Translations under genes and position numbers: made by a program
Virus record (IMG/VR): IMGVR_UViG_2648501839_000008
Source: a virus
Lineage: Duplodnaviria; Heunggongvirae; Uroviricota; Caudoviricetes
Direction: 5' to 3' (one strand)
Length of the DNA stretch: 64,000 bases
Part shown: one piece after another, positions 54,987-63,541 of the stretch
How positions within the stretch are numbered: the first letter of the stretch is position 1
Layout of the letters: each line of letters begins with the position of its first letter
The notes under the pieces: model-generated
What the model was told of the DNA's origin: nothing
What the model saw: only the letters and a program-made list of their open reading frames with translations
Databases searched by the model: none

Positions 54987-55451
54987 ATGAAGTCTCCCAT
55001 ACTGTTCACTTTCTGTTCTAAAACTATCATGAAATACTCGCTTCTCCCTCTACTAACGTTACCAGTGTTGATGCTTACCGCGTGCCAATCACGCCCAATA
55101 TCAATCCATGACGCCAAACCAGCACCGCAGGCCAAAGTGTTCAAGTATCAAAGCGCAGCGCCAGCTACGTTGGTGGTAATGAGAGACACAGGTTTTGTAG
55201 GAGCTGGATGTGATGCTTCCATTTTCATCAACGGCGAAACTGTCGCAAAACTGGCTACAGGCGAAAAAGCGACTTTCCATTTAAATGCCGGAGAATTAAT
55301 TGTGGGTGCATCTCTTGAAGGTGCAGGTTTATGTGCTCTAAACCCCGCTCGTCAAGAGCGAGAAACGACTCTGAAGAATGGAGACACAAAAGCGTTCAGG
55401 GTGTTCACCAGCAATTCTGGTGACATCGACATTCTGCCAACAACTCTGTGA
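54987..55451 (+). CDS. Lipoprotein
   Basis: Signal peptide with lipobox LMLTAC; start may be internal Met (MKYSLL...). Confidence 0.5.
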   Translation: MKSPILFTFCSKTIMKYSLLPLLTLPVLMLTACQSRPISIHDAKPAPQAKVFKYQSAAPATLVVMRDTGFVGAGCDASIFINGETVAKLATGEKATFHLNAGELIVGASLEGAGLCALNPARQERETTLKNGDTKAFRVFTSNSGDIDILPTTL

Positions 55452-55455
55452 TGAC

Positions 55456-55980
55456 ATGACAACCAAAGATATTACCTACGGTATCCAAGCTGAACTCTGG
55501 CCGCGAGATTACACTAACGTTGAAAAACTACTGATGTTCTGGCGCAGAGAACAAATTCCTGTAAGGGTCACTCTCGAAGATGGCCAGGCGTTTTGCATGT
55601 ACGTTTATGGCCTCATGCCATCTCGTAACAAAGTTGACCTTTGCCCAGCCCCTTTTGACAAAGAAAATCGTATAAGGCTCCCACTTGAACGCATTAGTAC
55701 AATTGAATCAGGTGTGGTTGACAGTATCGCTCACGATTTCAAAGGTCGACTAACAGTTCACCCTGATTATGTCGATAATCGGCCATCACGCCGCGATTTT
55801 TTTGCAATTTGCAACCAAGCCTACAAAGCAAACAAATCTATAAGGGTGTACATGGCGGATGGCCGTGAAATTGAGGGGGTGTCAGCAGGCGCAGATGCTT
55901 GTCAGGTTACACTACGTGTCGAGAACGGTAGAAAAATAGTTGTTTTGTTCGATTGGGTTGAACGAATTTTGCCTTTTTGA
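55456..55980 (+). CDS. Hypothetical protein
   Basis: ORF-track 55378..55980 trimmed to internal ATG (MTTKDITYG...) right after lipoprotein stop. Confidence 0.4.
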   Translation: MTTKDITYGIQAELWPRDYTNVEKLLMFWRREQIPVRVTLEDGQAFCMYVYGLMPSRNKVDLCPAPFDKENRIRLPLERISTIESGVVDSIAHDFKGRLTVHPDYVDNRPSRRDFFAICNQAYKANKSIRVYMADGREIEGVSAGADACQVTLRVENGRKIVVLFDWVERILPF

Positions 55981-57729: not shown

Positions 57730-57735
57730 AATCGA

Positions 57736-57758
57736 GCGCCCACTATGGGCGCTTTTTT
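57736..57758 (+). terminator. Rho-independent terminator (GCGCCCA-CTA-TGGGCGC plus T6)
   Basis: gcgcccactatgggcgctttttt; a near-identical hairpin without T-run lies at 57240-57256. Confidence 0.6.
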
Positions 57759-58047
57759 CGTTTCCAATACTCCCACCATAACGCGCCATCATTAGCGCGT
57801 TTTTTATTGTCTTTAACTCACTCCAACAACATAAAAATAAGCGCCAAAATAACGCCATAGACGCGCTTTTATATCCTTACCAGTACATACCCATTACTTA
57901 ACACATTAACGCGCTTAAAACGCGTTATATTGCGCTATAGAGTATGGTTAATCATTGGCTTTTAGTCTTGCTTTATGATCCGCGTTTATTTGTCGGCGCG
58001 GATCGGCATTTTGTTTTGTTCCGTATCCGCTCGCGTATTATGTGCGC

Positions 58048-58093
58048 GTGATTTTTCACATAATCACACCACTTAATCACGTATGTGATTATG
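58048..58093. promoter_or_regulatory. DnaA-box-like sequences and inverted repeat (TTTTTCACA; CATAATCACA...TGTGATTATG) in AT-rich region
   Basis: tttttcaca matches DnaA-box consensus TTWTNCACA; read directly. Confidence 0.3.
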
Positions 58094-58217
58094 CTACGAA
58101 AGAAATCTGGATGTCTCAGGCGACGAAAGTCATCATAATTTTCGCCGCTCACCTGTCCGACAACCGCTGGTTGGATTCCACCAGCTTCCCGATGTTTTTT
58201 CTACATAAAGGCGAATG

Positions 58218-58333
58218 CAGCCGTTTCCCGAAAAAATCCTGGCCGTTTCCCGTCGGCTCATGAATGCTTTCCTCGCCGTTTCTGAAAATTTCCCTGCGGC
58301 AGCTGGTGGCTATAGATAAAGGGCCGTTTCTGG
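58218..58333. repeat. Iteron-like direct repeats, cluster 1 (4 copies of GCCGTTTCCC/GCCGTTTCTG)
   Basis: Copies at about 58221, 58244, 58276 and 58323. Confidence 0.45.
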
Positions 58334-58345
58334 CCCTCTTCTCAG

Positions 58346-58828
58346 TTACACGCCATCAAGGATGTGGATGCGGTTGCTTGCGTATACATTCAGCATAAAG
58401 TTAGCGCAAAACAGTTTCCATGTGTCAACGCCAGCGGTATACGTAATGTTTTTGCATTTAATCGCATTGTTGGCGATCCGCATCCCCTGCGATACTGCTT
58501 CATCGTCGGAAAATTTGAACGACGATTGAGTTTTAATCCAGAAAGAAATCTGCGTAGCGAACTCAATCAGCTTGGACTGGCAGAATCGCCCGGAGCGCAC
58601 CGGAAAGACGAACGTTCCGAATCCAGAATTTACCACATACGCTTTCTCAAATACCCGCGAGTAACGACGATTGCCAATGATGTCGCGTGCAATAATGCAT
58701 TTTTCTTGTGCTGACAGTTCTACCGTCTCATTGTCGCGCCATGCACCAAGTACTCGTTTTTCAATGTCAGAGAACGTTACAGCGATATTGCCATGTGCGG
58801 GTGCGTTTACAGTAGCGATAAAATTCAT
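58346..58828 (-). CDS. Hypothetical protein
   Basis: 160-aa ORF; O2 operator and conserved TTAATTATCG box upstream. Confidence 0.45.
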   Translation of the reverse strand: MNFIATVNAPAHGNIAVTFSDIEKRVLGAWRDNETVELSAQEKCIIARDIIGNRRYSRVFEKAYVVNSGFGTFVFPVRSGRFCQSKLIEFATQISFWIKTQSSFKFSDDEAVSQGMRIANNAIKCKNITYTAGVDTWKLFCANFMLNVYASNRIHILDGV

Positions 58829-58847
58829 GATTAATTCCTTATCGTAA

Positions 58848-58867
58848 ATAACAAATTGTTTTCTTGT
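58848..58867. promoter_or_regulatory. O2 palindromic operator
   Basis: aataacaaattgttttcttg. Confidence 0.45.
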
Positions 58868-59032
58868 TTGTGTTAATTATCGTTGTACGAATAAGGCGTC
58901 AAAGTGGAAAGTTGCGGTAGCCGGACGGGAACAGGTGGGTTTGTCGGTTGCCTGGAGGTAAGAGGTTGGTGTTTTTAGCCTGAGGGAAGCAGGATGGTCA
59001 TTTAAGGCCACCAGCATTGGTGACCTTATTCT

Positions 59033-59320
59033 TCAGTGGAGCAGACCGATGTCGATGGTATCCCCTGAATCATCCACACGGATCATCAGCATGGCAAAGG
59101 CGTTTAGTGGATAGCTTGCGTGCCATTCAGGGAAGCGGTCATCTCGCATGAAGTCGGCAATGTCGTAAACGCATCCCTCAAAGTGGAAGAATCGCGTGCT
59201 TACCTGCTCATCATAATCCACATGATCCATTTCTTGCTGTTCTGTTTCCGGCAAGTCCAGCCATGATTCGAGGAATACATTTTGTGCTTTGGTGGTAATG
59301 GTGAAATCAGTCATGAGCAT
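59033..59320 (-). CDS. Hypothetical acidic small protein
   Basis: 95-aa ORF; paralogous upstream region. Confidence 0.45.
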   Translation of the reverse strand: MLMTDFTITTKAQNVFLESWLDLPETEQQEMDHVDYDEQVSTRFFHFEGCVYDIADFMRDDRFPEWHASYPLNAFAMLMIRVDDSGDTIDIGLLH

Positions 59321-59331
59321 ATCCTCACTGC

Positions 59332-59351
59332 GTAAACATGTTGTTTTCTTG
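59332..59351. promoter_or_regulatory. O2 palindromic operator
   Basis: gtaaacatgttgttttcttg. Confidence 0.45.
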
Positions 59352-59442
59352 TTGTTGTAATTATCGCAGCGAGATAAAGGCAGAAAACAAATTGTTATCG
59401 GGCATAAGAAAATGGCGCGGTTTACGCGCCATTCAAAGAGGA

Positions 59443-59838
59443 TTAAGCGAATACGCTTTCAGGGATTAAGGTGCCGGCAGGAATGCCAGAGGTAATGCGC
59501 AGACCGTACTGGCCAATCCAGGTGGTGCTGGTGTTCAGGCTGGAGGCGAATACGGTGTTAACCATATTCATCATGGTTTCAAACACCTCTTCATCAACCT
59601 GGCGGAAGTAGTTCTCGATTTTCAGCAGCAGCGGGTCAGTTGCATCGAGAATGGACTGGTATTGAGTCGCGTACTCGCCGCCGGAGGCATCACCTTTACG
59701 CACGATCGTACTGGCCTGGACTTCGGCACCAGTTTCGGTGTTGTACGTAACAACGGTGATTTTTGCCACATTCTTACCTTCGGCGGTTTCAGAGGCATAG
59801 TAAACATCAACTGTCAGTTTTTCGCGTTTAACGGTCAT
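59443..59838 (-). CDS. Hypothetical protein
   Basis: Start placed at internal Met (MTVKREKL...) with GGAGAG RBS; ORF-track start 59904 would include the O1 motif. Confidence 0.45.
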   Translation of the reverse strand: MTVKREKLTVDVYYASETAEGKNVAKITVVTYNTETGAEVQASTIVRKGDASGGEYATQYQSILDATDPLLLKIENYFRQVDEEVFETMMNMVNTVFASSLNTSTTWIGQYGLRITSGIPAGTLIPESVFA

Positions 59839-59964
59839 TTCACTCTCCGTAGTGTATTGGTTATTTTTATATTCTATGATCGTAAGTATGTACTTACAAT
59901 ACAAAAAAGCCCCGTAAGGATGGCGGGGCTGTCGTACTGTCGACTAATTACCACTTGCACATTA

Positions 59965-60276
59965 TCAGGCTATTGCCATCACTGATGCTCTCTGAATTTC
60001 TTGCTGGGCCACGCGGTTAACTTCCATCAAGGCCAGTTCGAGCTGATGTTCCGGCCACATTCTTTGAAATGCCACCCATCCTTTTCCACGCTGGCGACGA
60101 ACATTCATTACATAACGAGTAAAGGTGTTTTTATCGAAAGACACCGCTGTTTCACGGAACAGACGAATAGAAGTTCCATTGGCAACGATGTCTAGCAAAG
60201 TTAATTGAGCAACCAGTGCAGGCTTCTCTTTTCTCTTCTGGTCTTTGTCCAGACCAAGAACCAATGATTTTTTCAT
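59965..60276 (-). CDS. Hypothetical small basic protein
   Basis: Start at MKKSLVLG with GGAG RBS; O2 operator just upstream. Confidence 0.4.
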   Translation of the reverse strand: MKKSLVLGLDKDQKRKEKPALVAQLTLLDIVANGTSIRLFRETAVSFDKNTFTRYVMNVRRQRGKGWVAFQRMWPEHQLELALMEVNRVAQQEIQRASVMAIA

Positions 60277-60285
60277 CACAACTCC

Positions 60286-60304
60286 GTAAACAACTTGTTT
60301 TCTC
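60286..60304. promoter_or_regulatory. O2 palindromic operator
   Basis: gtaaacaacttgttttctc. Confidence 0.45.
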
Positions 60305-60429
60305 AATGGCGTAAATAATACCAGTAAGAAAACGGCTACAAAGCATAATGATCAGGTGCATGATCGATATGCAGGTTCCTCCCAGCGGCTATAGAGAAAT
60401 TAAGCCAGCAATGCTGGCTTTGGTTGGGA

Positions 60430-60780
60430 TTACGCGAATACCTCAAGAAACTCCTGAACGTCCCAATGCTGGACGAGGTGAAGATAGACCTTAGAAATCA
60501 CGTCATTTTCGCTATCGCATGTGAAGTAGTACTTCTGGCTGCGGTTGTATGTGTCCACACAAAATTCGCTCATATCCATAAAGTCAGCATCTTCACCCAT
60601 GTCGCAAATCATCAAAGCAGGTGCGTCATCACGAGTCATCAGCTCAAGCACCCACCGCGAATTGATCAGAGTGGAAGACCAACCTTCTAACTCATAAAAC
60701 TGATCAAACTCTTTTTGAGTTAATTTCTTGATTTGGTTGATGTCGATATTTGCAAACATAAAGCAATCCTTAAACAACAT
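60430..60780 (-). CDS. Hypothetical acidic small protein
   Basis: 116-aa ORF, strongly acidic. Confidence 0.45.
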   Translation of the reverse strand: MLFKDCFMFANIDINQIKKLTQKEFDQFYELEGWSSTLINSRWVLELMTRDDAPALMICDMGEDADFMDMSEFCVDTYNRSQKYYFTCDSENDVISKVYLHLVQHWDVQEFLEVFA

Positions 60781-60789
60781 GTTTTCTTG
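60770..60789. promoter_or_regulatory. O2 palindromic operator
   Basis: ttaaacaacatgttttcttg. Confidence 0.45.
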
Positions 60790-61109
60790 ATGGTGTTATT
60801 ATCGCAATAACGCACAGGCGAAAAAGGATTTTATTCCGGTGAATGTGGTTTTGGCAGTGAGTTTTCAGGTTCAGTACCGAGTACACTTTTTACATTATTC
60901 TGATTTAGTGGCTGGTGGGCAGAATAATCCTCTCCCCGAAAACCTACTGAAATCGATTGTGACCCGTTGGCTGTCTGGCACAATTACGCTGTAGCTGGGC
61001 ATTCAGAGGGAATCCAGCGGTAAGCAAGTCCGCCTACGTGAGCGCCTCTCTTCTTCCCGCACATTACAGGTGGGTAGCCGCAACTCTCCCTCTCGCTATA
61101 CCGGTACGC

Positions 61110-61246
61110 CACCTTTCCTGAACCGGCATCGAGCCTTCTCCCGAAATCCACACAGGCAACTCGACCGTTTCCCTGAAAACCTCCAGCCGTTCCCCGAAGG
61201 CAACCCAGCCGTTTCTGTAGCGGGATGCAGCCTTTTCCCTGTATGG
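61110..61246. repeat. Iteron-like direct repeats, cluster 2 (about 6 copies of AGCCGTTTCCC-GAA-type unit at 22-25 bp spacing)
   Basis: cacctttcctgaacc, agccttctcccgaaatcc, cgaccgtttccctgaaaacc, cagccgttccccgaagg, cagccgtttctgtagcg, cagccttttccctgtatgg. Confidence 0.45.
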
Positions 61247-61379
61247 ACCGAAGGCTGACCGTAGGGGTGTTACGGGGGATAAAATCAGGAGTTGAATAAA
61301 TACGAAAAAGGAGGCGACACCCCTCCTTCCCTCCCCACTTATACATACCTGGCTTCTTCGCTATGCATGTTGTGTTTTA

Positions 61380-62300
61380 TCTGTCTCAACCTCTCTATAG
61401 GCGTTAATGCTCACTCCTTCCAGAATGTTCTATACGGCGACTATTTCTGTTGGTGAATTGGGTGTGTTGTTTTCTCTGTCGGTGTATGTGGTTTCGTTCG
61501 TTTTGCGGTGGTTCTTCTATGGGGTGTTCTCGTCGTTTTGGTGATTGTTCTTCTCCATGTATGGAGTAATGGCAGGTGGGCGAATCCTTTCGTTATTGTG
61601 TTTGAGTTGTTTGTCTGGAGTGTGTGAAGGGCTTTTGTAGTTATTCGTGTATTGGGTAATGGCGTTTCCCGTGATTGTTATGTTTCGTGTCTTTTGGGAT
61701 TGAGAGAATCCTTGCGGTTACAGGCTTCGTTGGGTTTTCAGTGATTCTGGTGTTTCTTCGCTGTTTGGGGAATGGCGTGTCGTGGGTATCGCGCGTATGA
61801 ATGTTTTCGGATTGCCTGTGAAAGTTAGGTTGGCTGTCCGGTAGCCTGGGGAGAAGAGGTGGGTCTTTTCGGTAGCCTGCCATAAAGAGGTTGGTTGTTT
61901 TGGGGAATGGCATGTGTGTTATTTAGTTGTTTTGTTATAGCTGAAAATAAGTTGTTTATATAGTTATGTAACGCAATGGGAGTGATTTTGAGCGTGTGTT
62001 TTTTCTTGGTAGTGTGTTGGGTCGTCTGTGGTGAAAATTGGACGCTGTGGCGCTGTCTGCTGCGTAGAATTACGGGTATAAGAAGTGATGTGTGAATACG
62101 TCAATTTTTTAGACCAAATCGGGTGAAAGCGTTGACGTTTCGTTGATCTGTTATTTAGTTGTTTTCTTATTGGTATAAACAACGTTAACCTATTGATATT
62201 TAAAGGTGTGATTGCAGGTATGGAAGAAGAGTAGTGGCGATCAACGGATTCTTATAGAAAAGAATCAAATTGTGACCGCCATTATCAACTGATTGATTAA
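61380..62300. other. ORF-free, strongly GT-skewed region with imperfect repeats
   Basis: No ORF of 60 aa or more on either strand; repeated GGGTAATGGCG-like and GGTAGCCTGGGGAGAAGAGGTGGG-like units. Confidence 0.4.
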
Positions 62301-62311
62301 GCTAATTACAC

Positions 62312-63541
62312 TCAAACATCCCCGTTCTTAATCCACTGCCTGACTTGCTCGTCTTGTGCGACTTCTTTCTCATGTTTGGCAATATACAAGTCTGGCAATA
62401 GGGGTGGAGCGAATTCAGGCTCTGTCGCACGCCACTTTTCATATGCGTCACGCATGGATTTCTCAACATTCCAATGCTCCAACTCTTGGTATTCAATCGG
62501 CCAGTTATCCTGCAATCTCTTCACTGCATTAGCCAGGTCGTATCGGAAGTAAGGATTAAGACCAATGAAATTACCAGCCAGCATGTCATCAACCTCCTTC
62601 ACTCTGGCAATCTTAGAAAACTTACCAATAGCAATGTTGAGGTCCCAATCTGACACGAACAACAAAAGTGCTGCAAATGCCAGAAACTTAGCTTCCCCGT
62701 ATGCTCTGTCGCTAACCGTTTTTGTCTGAAACTCAATGTAATTGCCCATCACAAAACTAGTAAGCTTACAGGTATTACTTATCTCGTCCTCCAAATGCGA
62801 TGGATCGAGAATTGTGCGGTCACGATTATTGTTTATGTGTTCTAAGATTACAGCAATGTCTCTATGTGAGACTGAAATTTCACGCAATTGCTGGAGAGTC
62901 TTGATGTGAACTCTTAGCACCTCTTTGTCAATCGCACGCTTCCAAGAAAAACCAGGCACAGTAACCTGAATGGGCGCGAAAGGTAGAATATCAGGAGTTG
63001 TCCATGCTAGATATGCATCACGTAACCCACTAATATAATAAAGCCAGTCTAAATGCTCGCTTTCTAACCATATTTCAAATGTGGAATCCTTTCGCTTATT
63101 GAAGAACCATTCCCTCATCTGCCACATTTTTTCTTGAGTAAATATCCCTTCCTGTATGCCGGCACAGACCAGCTTTCGTATTACCTGCGAATACTTTGTT
63201 CGATCTTTTGTGAATGAGACAAGGTGCTGCTTCACCTCAGATGTTAGTCTATCTCCATAGAAATCACATGATGGATGATGGCCTTGACCATCTTCACCGG
63301 TAAATCTGAAATGCGCCTTCTTGTGATAGCCACCATTCCTAGTGGCTCTAACGAACGAACCACCTCCAACTTTGCAAATGGGGCAGATGATATCGTCACG
63401 GGCAATAGCATGAACCGAGCTGTCATCTAAATTCTTTAGCGCCAAGTACTGCTCAGGATCGACTTCTTTTTGTAACGATTTTGAAAAAGCGGTATCAGTC
63501 ATTCCAAGCTCCGAGCAAGGGGTTATTTGTTCAATTATCAT
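62312..63541 (-). CDS. Hypothetical protein with Cys/His zinc-binding-like motif
   Basis: 409-aa ORF; CPICKVGGGSF...HKKAHFRF...HHPSCDFY. Confidence 0.5.
   Translation of the reverse strand: MIIEQITPCSELGMTDTAFSKSLQKEVDPEQYLALKNLDDSSVHAIARDDIICPICKVGGGSFVRATRNGGYHKKAHFRFTGEDGQGHHPSCDFYGDRLTSEVKQHLVSFTKDRTKYSQVIRKLVCAGIQEGIFTQEKMWQMREWFFNKRKDSTFEIWLESEHLDWLYYISGLRDAYLAWTTPDILPFAPIQVTVPGFSWKRAIDKEVLRVHIKTLQQLREISVSHRDIAVILEHINNNRDRTILDPSHLEDEISNTCKLTSFVMGNYIEFQTKTVSDRAYGEAKFLAFAALLLFVSDWDLNIAIGKFSKIARVKEVDDMLAGNFIGLNPYFRYDLANAVKRLQDNWPIEYQELEHWNVEKSMRDAYEKWRATEPEFAPPLLPDLYIAKHEKEVAQDEQVRQWIKNGDV

Follow-up and report, generated by a model that had tools for sequence, protein, structure and literature searches.

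Bacteriophage P1 provides an example of a dispersed operator in a phage-plasmid: the asymmetric operator of its C1 network, about 17 base pairs (bp) long, is scattered over the genome, in some places in bivalent form, and it is also found at the operon of the DnaB-type helicase. In the KorA/KorB regulons of IncP plasmids, a palindromic operator is reused at many promoters. Regulation has hardly been studied so far in the SSU5/pHCM2-type phage-plasmids, which are common in Escherichia coli, Klebsiella, Salmonella Typhi, Shigella and Yersinia pestis, and which carry resistance genes. The present analysis concerns a stretch of 64,000 nucleotides (nt) from a virus of the Caudoviricetes (IMG/VR record IMGVR_UViG_2648501839_000008), the whole of which is called here the window, and in particular an array of five small genes, A to E, at positions 58,346 to 60,780. 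Four of these genes are headed by a 17-bp palindrome that recurs at many other transcription units of the element, a distribution which points to control by a single DNA-binding regulator.

The region from 57.8 to 62.3 kb of the window aligns over its full length, with 97-98.6% identity, to about 176 E. coli plasmids of about 108 kb, which are non-mobilizable; for the same region, identity is 96.5% with Cyrano, a phage-plasmid of E. coli LF82, and 94% with phage PhiR41_1. The annotated complete relative NZ_CP117002 encodes DnaE, a DnaB-like helicase, a primase, a ligase, NrdAB, ThyX, an integrase, siphovirus structural genes, ParA and two ParB-like proteins. Because this annotation corresponds to the SSU5/pHCM2 gene set, the window is assigned, through its likeness to that relative, to an SSU5/pHCM2-type phage-plasmid of E. 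coli.

A previous sequence-only reading of the window had proposed five short open reading frames (ORFs) in this region, two of them strongly acidic. All five were found there, on the minus strand, and are protein-coding, with the starts of B, C and E better placed further in; the isoelectric points (pI) given below also bear out the acidity of B and E. The genes are:

58346..58828, minus strand: gene A, 160 amino acids (aa), basic (pI 9.2), phrog_1641; conserved core gene of the array
59033..59314, minus strand: gene B, 93 aa, pI 4.1, net charge -15, phrog_1845; kept in most SSU5-like elements
59443..59838, minus strand: gene C, 131 aa, acidic (pI 4.6), phrog_2473; the core gene evolving fastest, with its own promoter
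59965..60276, minus strand: gene D, 103 aa, basic (pI 10.5), phrog_5125; conserved core gene
60430..60759, minus strand: gene E, 109 aa, pI 4.2, net charge -13, phrog_7645; in a variable slot, E. coli-type elements only

These are real protein genes, all under purifying selection, with ratios of nonsynonymous to synonymous substitution rates (dN/dS) of 0.04-0.48 for orthologues in Klebsiella, SSU5, pHCM2, Enterobacter, pFra and PhiR41_1. A Shine-Dalgarno sequence and a 3′ hairpin are present for each of them, and their PHROG matches span the full length, in every case to a PHROG without assigned function. The start of B was placed at 59314, since the PHROG profile alignment begins at residue 3 and the RefSeq call is 282 nt long. 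For C, PHROG alignments and RefSeq calls indicate the ATG at 59838 rather than the TTG at 59904, while for E the ATG at 60759 was chosen because the one at 60780 falls within the operator described below. RefSeq/NCBI names the product of B an "ABC transporter" (WP_164876432 and relatives), a name that finds no support in any family search.

Nearly the same promoter and operator cassette had been described before each of the five ORFs. It is present before A, B, D and E, whereas C has a different promoter and no operator. In the four cassettes, a -35-like TTgnnGCC is followed after a 15-nt spacer by GATAAT (TATTAT in D) and, 11-12 nt further on, by the palindrome GAAAACA-N3-TGTTTAC, which ends 7-19 nt 5′ of the start codon; the cassettes of B and E share 71% identity across 62 nt. 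Operator copies (O2), promoter boxes and hairpins are located as follows:

58847..58863, minus strand: O2 operator of A, 19 nt 5′ of the start codon; -10-like GATAAT at 58876-58881
59332..59348, minus strand: proximal O2 operator of B; -10-like GATAAT at 59360-59365
59383..59399: distal O2 operator of B, 51 bp from the proximal copy and overlapping the -35-like box
60286..60302, minus strand: O2 operator of D, 10 nt 5′ of the ATG; -10-like TATTAT at 60315-60320
60770..60786, minus strand: O2 operator of E, 11 nt 5′ of the ATG at 60759; -10-like GATAAT at 60798-60803
59871..59899, minus strand: promoter of gene C, sigma-70-like TTGTAA-17-TAGAAT, no operator, 3′ of the terminator of D
58321..58336, minus strand: terminator hairpin of A
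59004-59027: hairpin 3′ of B, without a clear T-run
59412-59432: hairpin 3′ of C
59903-59930: hairpin 3′ of D
60402-60420: hairpin 3′ of E

The palindrome is found well outside the array. Its pattern has 15 matches in the window against 1.45 expected, a number reached by none of 100 shuffled sequences. Ten of 14 window sites sit 7-39 nt 5′ of a minus-strand start codon, the genes being cobT-like, a dnaB-like helicase, parA, terS, A, B, D, E, a DUF5983 gene and, in the ORF-free region, a 90-aa ORF of doubtful status; the window sites outside the array are located at 2460, 15290, 19046, 49706/49731, 54693 and 63984. When the whole record of NZ_CP117002 was scanned with a matrix built from the sites, about 19 of them scored at least 14 bits, compared to 0-2 in shuffled sequences; they belong to about 15 units, among which those of cobT, dnaB, parA, terS, nrdB, a TerB-like gene, DUF1380, A, B, D and E. 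Several units have a second operator copy exactly 51 bp upstream, and such 51-bp pairs recur in several elements. No change in the operator is seen in Klebsiella, SSU5, pHCM2 or Enterobacter, nor in a distant Klebsiella element whose protein A has an identity of only 33%.

One operator is thus present at many separate promoters, as in a dispersed-operator immunity regulon of the P1 C1 type; the shared control of independent cassettes, which the sequence-only reading had claimed for the array, is supported and extends to the whole element. Since the same site heads dnaB-like, parA, cobT-like, nrdB and terS/structural units, together with other small genes, the palindrome is read as an operator dispersed over the element and bound by a single DNA-binding regulator, most likely a repressor acting as a dimer, and its paired sites would permit looping. 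No operator copy adjoins the gene for a 128-aa helix-turn-helix protein called "putative repressor" (3005-3391); this protein, D and the FljA-like protein described below are candidates only for the operator binder.

Expression data are available as normalized values for the LF82 lysogen of Cyrano, obtained in overnight lysogeny broth (LB) culture unless stated (PMC9928086, S1 Table). The counterparts of the array genes are CYRAN_111 (A, 25.5), CYRAN_110 (B, 6.7), CYRAN_107 (C, 17.0), CYRAN_106 (D, 12.2) and CYRAN_105 (E, 12.8), to be compared to a prophage background of 9.8, to 133 for RepA and to 96 for the putative repressor. All five are within about 0.7-2.6 times background and none is above 49, the cut-off used by the authors for morons; the other operator-headed units dnaB, cobT, terS and nrdB are near background too. 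In medium or macrophage conditions A, C and E go up 4- to 10-fold, without induction of lytic genes (PMC9928086). This lysogen pattern fits repression in the plasmid state, leaky for some units.

In the explanation proposed here, A, B, D and E would be prophage-repressed early accessory genes, probably involved in host interaction, a view for and against which we find the chances evenly balanced, and in which repression, early timing and role are all things that we infer. Each of the five genes is a transcription unit of its own, with Shine-Dalgarno sequence, promoter and terminator hairpin. In A, B, D and E, a weak sigma-70-type promoter is followed, 11-12 bp on, by the 17-bp GAAAACA-N3-TGTTT(A/T)C, the predicted place of which in the transcript is about +3 to +20; the extra copy of B, 51 bp upstream, lies over the -35 box. 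In the plasmid (lysogenic) state the regulator would hold these four genes near background; upon infection or induction they would be released together with the replication and nucleotide-metabolism operons. C would represent a moron-like gene, promoted separately. Host takeover or counter-defence early in infection is the most likely role of the products: B, C and E, being acidic, may bind proteins as inhibitors or decoys, and the basic A and D may be partners that bind nucleic acids or have a regulatory role.

Several points weigh against early, repressed host-interaction genes. In the LF82 lysogen, parA is clearly expressed in spite of its O2 operator, and A is at a RepA-like level under some growth conditions (PMC9928086); thus, repression is not absolute. 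None of the four cassette promoters, with their weak -35 and a 15-nt spacer to GATAAT, was called by a simple promoter scanner, and their assignment therefore rests on inspection and conservation. No protein of A-E has detectable likeness to a known anti-defence or host-takeover protein. Moreover, A-D belong to the conserved backbone, and Y. pestis pFra has retained A and B; an arms race would account for this no better, and perhaps less well, than a function in maintenance or replication.

The lysogen values also bear on a different possibility, that the genes are morons or plasmid-state fitness factors serving the host or the maintenance of the element, and not early lytic genes. Each gene does have its own promoter and terminator, as morons do; C has no operator, N15-like phages have acquired homologues of it, and the changes of A, E and C in medium and macrophage conditions occur in LF82 while lytic genes stay uninduced. 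However, in overnight LB none of the five reached the expression in the resident state that the authors' cut-off demands of morons, and the operator of four of them is common to lytic replication and packaging operons. We consider this possibility rather improbable.

The position of the palindrome downstream of the promoter raises the question of the level at which it acts, and a neighbouring gene is relevant in this respect. A full-length homologue of FljA, the Salmonella phase-1 flagellin repressor, is encoded at 55378-55980 on the plus strand (PF03614, E = 2.5e-84); SSU5, pHCM2, Y. pestis pFra and Klebsiella elements have all kept it next to the array. Neither Klebsiella nor Y. pestis is known to make flagella, and the target of the FljA-like protein is for this reason probably other than host flagellin. 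In Salmonella, FljA reportedly binds the fliC leader. The palindrome could then be a translational operator in the 5′ untranslated region, acting at the RNA level and bound by the adjacent FljA-like protein. Indeed, the site always follows the -10 box and precedes the Shine-Dalgarno sequence, at 7-39 nt from the start codon, the full-length FljA homologue is conserved in Klebsiella and Y. pestis elements too, and the Salmonella fliC leader has CAAGTTGT and GATAAGGAA (an 8-mer and a 9-mer) in common with the region 5′ of gene A. On the other hand, the operator matrix gives the fliC leader 0.2 bits, where true sites reach 12-27 bits; the second copies, 51 bp upstream and over the -35, are outside the transcript, which suggests DNA looping; the 5-bp A-U stem would form a very weak RNA hairpin; and in the distant element the FljA-like protein is 33% identical while the operator is unchanged. 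Control at the RNA level appears quite improbable, and the FljA-like protein as an operator binder, proposed from the likeness to the fliC leader, was retained as an unproven rival of low probability only.

The array was compared in nine elements and shows a conserved order: repeats, a variable slot, occasional extra genes, D, C, an optional insertion, B, A, and again repeats. A, C and D are present in every intact array examined, and B in most arrays, including that of Y. pestis pFra, which keeps only B and A and has IS1541 in place of everything upstream of B (4856-5314 of the stretch examined). The variable slot is occupied by E in E. coli-type elements and elsewhere by two acidic proteins of about 72 aa; eight alternative-slot proteins gave no functional match in Pfam or PHROGs. 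E itself forms 10 protein clusters, all at least 74% identical, and is absent from the Klebsiella, Salmonella and Enterobacter relatives. Compared to SSU5, identity is 70% for A, 78% for B, 53% for C and 62% for D, E being absent, against a backbone median of 87%; in the most distant element D is 52% identical, and D and the neighbouring 216-aa protein are the best conserved across the deepest split (50-52%).

The families of A and B are restricted to SSU5-like elements. For C, an exhaustive HMMER search returned about 30 representative clusters, with homologues in N15-like phages and one Proteus phage and with 35-64% identity among them; one of these is Gp62 of phiKO2 (6004-6444 of the stretch examined), which lies beside a holin-like gene, phiKO2 belonging to the N15-like linear phage-plasmids of Klebsiella. 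Judged from this distribution, C is a mobile accessory gene that different phage-plasmid groups have in common. An extra gene of 124-136 aa separates B and C in Cyrano, PhiR41_1 and Klebsiella p11219-CTXM, joined in Cyrano and PhiR41_1 by a 47-aa gene (CYRAN_109; CYRAN_108/109 correspond to 6705-7261 of the stretch examined). In the lysogen, the expression of CYRAN_109 is 6 times that of the background (PMC9928086).

The charge of B and E had led to the suggestion of DNA-mimic proteins. According to this idea, B and E, and perhaps C, would be anti-restriction proteins of the Ocr/ArdA type, made first after DNA entry against type I restriction-modification or DNA-binding defence proteins. B (pI 4.11) and E are the only two of 74 crude window genes with a pI of 4.3 or lower and thus the two most acidic ones, with 21% and 19% Asp+Glu and net charges of -15 in 93 aa and -13 in 109 aa. 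Such a charge density may lie in the range of known DNA mimics. Both genes are small, separately promoted and operator-gated; E is limited to E. coli-type elements, other genera having other small acidic proteins in its place, and array proteins diverge faster than the backbone.

The searches provide no support for this idea. No significant match of A-E was found in Pfam, NCBIfam, PADLOC or PDB, either as single sequences or as profiles, and none of them resembles an anti-restriction family in Pfam, NCBIfam, PHROGs or, by phmmer and hmmsearch, a PDB entry; D has no PDB relative by profile search. Structure prediction, which had been recommended for DNA-mimic features, was performed for A and B and gave a confident model for A, with a predicted local distance difference test (pLDDT) value of 89, and a moderate one for B; no structural neighbour was found for either, nor any fold likeness to a solved mimic. 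In the B family, the best-conserved residues are aromatic and basic, in the C-terminal half, with no periodic acidic pattern, and B is a conserved backbone gene, kept in pFra, unlike the variable gene expected for counter-defence. Furthermore, acidity by itself is frequent among small phage proteins. In a published DefenseFinder screen of SSU5-group elements, Rad was the only system detected; it was present in part of the Escherichia/Shigella elements, and those of Salmonella had none (bioRxiv 10.1101/2025.09.12.675607). Beyond charge, the DNA-mimic idea finds no support in these comparisons, and we hold it to be improbable.

Two other assignments were discarded during the protein searches. 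C gave weak matches to Cas_APE2256, TIGR02619 and Csm6 in three libraries (E = 0.02-0.05), suggestive of a CARF-type, cyclic-oligonucleotide-binding protein; these are chance matches, found in only one of 18 family members, and the family profile finds nothing in PDB. A and D were considered as paralogues on the basis of BLAST identities of 29-36% over about 50 aa and were rejected as such by an hhalign probability of 0.85%.

The array had also been described as lying between two clusters of iterons. Direct repeats do exist at both flanks, but they are not the iterons of the plasmid replicon. The repeat families are:

58220..58284, minus strand: repeat cluster 1, core GGGAAACGGC at 58220, 58242 and 58275; just 3′ of A
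61133..61239, minus strand: repeat cluster 2, GGGAAACGGC at 61133, 61164, 61186, 61208 and 61230; 5′ of E
58912..58971: pair of 30-nt units GGTAGCC..GAGGTGGGT of a second repeat family, located between A and B; another pair at 61836-61896 in the ORF-free tract

The spacing of the GGGAAACGGC repeats is in helical register, being 22 bp exactly for 61164/61186/61208/61230 and again for 58220/58242. In the approximately 105 kb (about 97%) of NZ_CP117002 that were scanned, they are confined to the two flanks, and clusters occur at both flanks, about 3-3.6 kb apart, in every examined relative with an intact array. The location of cluster 1 is the same in Klebsiella, SSU5, pHCM2, Enterobacter and pFra; in the latter, whose upstream part is replaced by the insertion sequence, the cluster 3′ of A is the only one retained.

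The replicon of the element has been located elsewhere. In Cyrano, RepA is CYRAN_63, about 35 kb from the array (PMC9928086, S1 Table). In NZ_CP117002, RepA (about 364 aa) is encoded at the record origin, where a DnaA box and a GATC cluster are followed by iterons, then by repA and then by more than 10 further TATGCTGTCAGCGGT copies; the 19-bp iteron TATGCTGTCAGCGGT is present in more than 15 copies around repA, in a layout resembling P1 oriR-repA-incA. The GGGAAACGGC motif is absent from this RepA region. As to a Rep gene beside the GGGAAACGGC repeats, none of A-E matches a Rep family, and the A model has no winged-helix neighbour. The GGGAAACGGC repeats may thus be described as conserved protein-binding arrays other than RepA iterons, possibly a lytic origin or a boundary/control element. 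A paper on a domain-less "repA" with downstream iterons in IncpKPHS1 plasmids had suggested that A could be a plasmid initiator; A was rejected in this role, as the RepA of Cyrano is a different gene, the real RepA with its iterons was found in the complete relative, and the A model has no Rep-like neighbour. The Cyrano RepA primers have no match in the window or in the relatives' loci that were compared.

Replication control, which the sequence-only reading had named as its alternative, is consequently weakened as far as the plasmid replicon is concerned, given the different iteron and the distance of RepA, while the array may serve at a lytic origin. The array and its flanking repeats might constitute a replication or segregation module (a lytic origin, a copy-control or a centromere-like locus), with A and/or D binding GGGAAACGGC. 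Consistent with such a module are the 22-bp register of two helical turns, restricted to the flanks and conserved from E. coli to the distant Klebsiella element, and the AT-rich, hairpin-rich region that adjoins cluster 1. In addition, A and D are basic core genes, D and its 216-aa neighbour being those best conserved at the deepest split; pFra keeps A and B together with cluster 1, and A has a low, RepA-like expression in some lysogen conditions. Arguments to the contrary come from the complete plasmid replicon present elsewhere, with RepA, DnaA box, GATC cluster and an iteron of its own in more than 15 copies; from the confident model of A, devoid of a winged-helix or other known DNA-binding neighbour; from DnaA boxes, which are not enriched (5 found, about 7 expected); and from the composition of the array, whose mostly acidic proteins and variable slots would be unusual at an origin. 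A replication or origin role for array and repeats is a serious rival, to which we nevertheless assign a low probability.

The non-coding tracts on either side of the array have features of their own. The region 57730-58130, adjoining repeat cluster 1, is intergenic, convergent and AT-rich and contains five or more hairpins with GC stems, which could be stacked terminators or an origin-like element. On the other side, the ORF-free tract 61350-62311, of about 960 bp, is strongly asymmetric between the strands, with 39% A, 29% C, 13% G and 19% T on the minus strand, and contains several repeat families; in SSU5 there is a comparably long gene-poor gap 5′ of the array, where the annotated ORFs are short and doubtful. 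A search for known RNAs in the ORF-free and iteron regions gave no Rfam match with E < 0.2 and none that was CsrB-like. Directly upstream of the ORF-free tract, 62312-63541 on the minus strand codes for a 409-aa protein (phrog_12525), 56% identical to SSU5_107, at whose place some E. coli relatives (NZ_CP117002, Cyrano) have other genes.

The reading of A, B, D and E as repressed early accessory genes can be extended to the whole locus. In this bolder form, which we regard as doubtful, the array would be an early-gene island in which B, C, E and the slot proteins are new inhibitors that serve counter-defence or host takeover, A (a new fold) or D binds GGGAAACGGC, and the palindromic operator works in a P1-C1-like manner. 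If true, a repressor-gated early-gene island would exist in more than 800 clinical phage-plasmids of Enterobacterales, and the GGGAAACGGC arrays would represent a new cis-acting control or origin element. Apart from this extension, the operator and the list of units that it heads offer a concrete handle on lysis-lysogeny and plasmid-state control in the family. The array provides a compact, conserved set of orphan proteins, one of which has a confident predicted fold without known relative, and which may be tested for counter-defence, takeover and replication. Should they be ordinary early genes, the value of the analysis would lie in better annotation, with the "ABC transporter" name removed and the gene starts corrected.

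The locus can finally be placed beside the systems that it resembles. In size and strongly negative charge, B and E are similar to Ocr (T7 gp0.3) and ArdA, but no sequence or profile likeness to them was found, nor any fold likeness in the model of B. The helical-register direct repeats that flank the gene block recall the iteron replicons of P1 and F type (oriR-repA-incA); in this family, however, a replicon of that type is found elsewhere, with a different 19-bp iteron, and no initiator-like protein is encoded between the GGGAAACGGC repeats. The KorA/KorB regulons have in common with the present case the reuse of an operator at partition, replication and accessory operons of a mobile element, although there is no homology and the element here is a phage-plasmid. 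Early accessory, moron and counter-defence clusters of phages are also composed of small, mostly acidic orphans, each with its own promoter and terminator, with variable slots and fast divergence; unlike them, the core genes A, B, C and D are conserved throughout the SSU5 supergroup and match no known anti-defence family. The P1 C1 network similarly displays a dispersed operator of about 17 bp, on or just past the promoters of many units, including that of a DnaB-type helicase, some sites being paired; its units are silent in the plasmid state, in which most of the units here are near background and parA is expressed. The operator of P1 is asymmetric, whereas the one described here is the inverted repeat GAAAACA-N3-TGTTTTC, with no sequence relation to it and with a repression that is putative. 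Taken together, the locus is a new, uncharacterised case of the familiar operator-gated accessory genes of phages.

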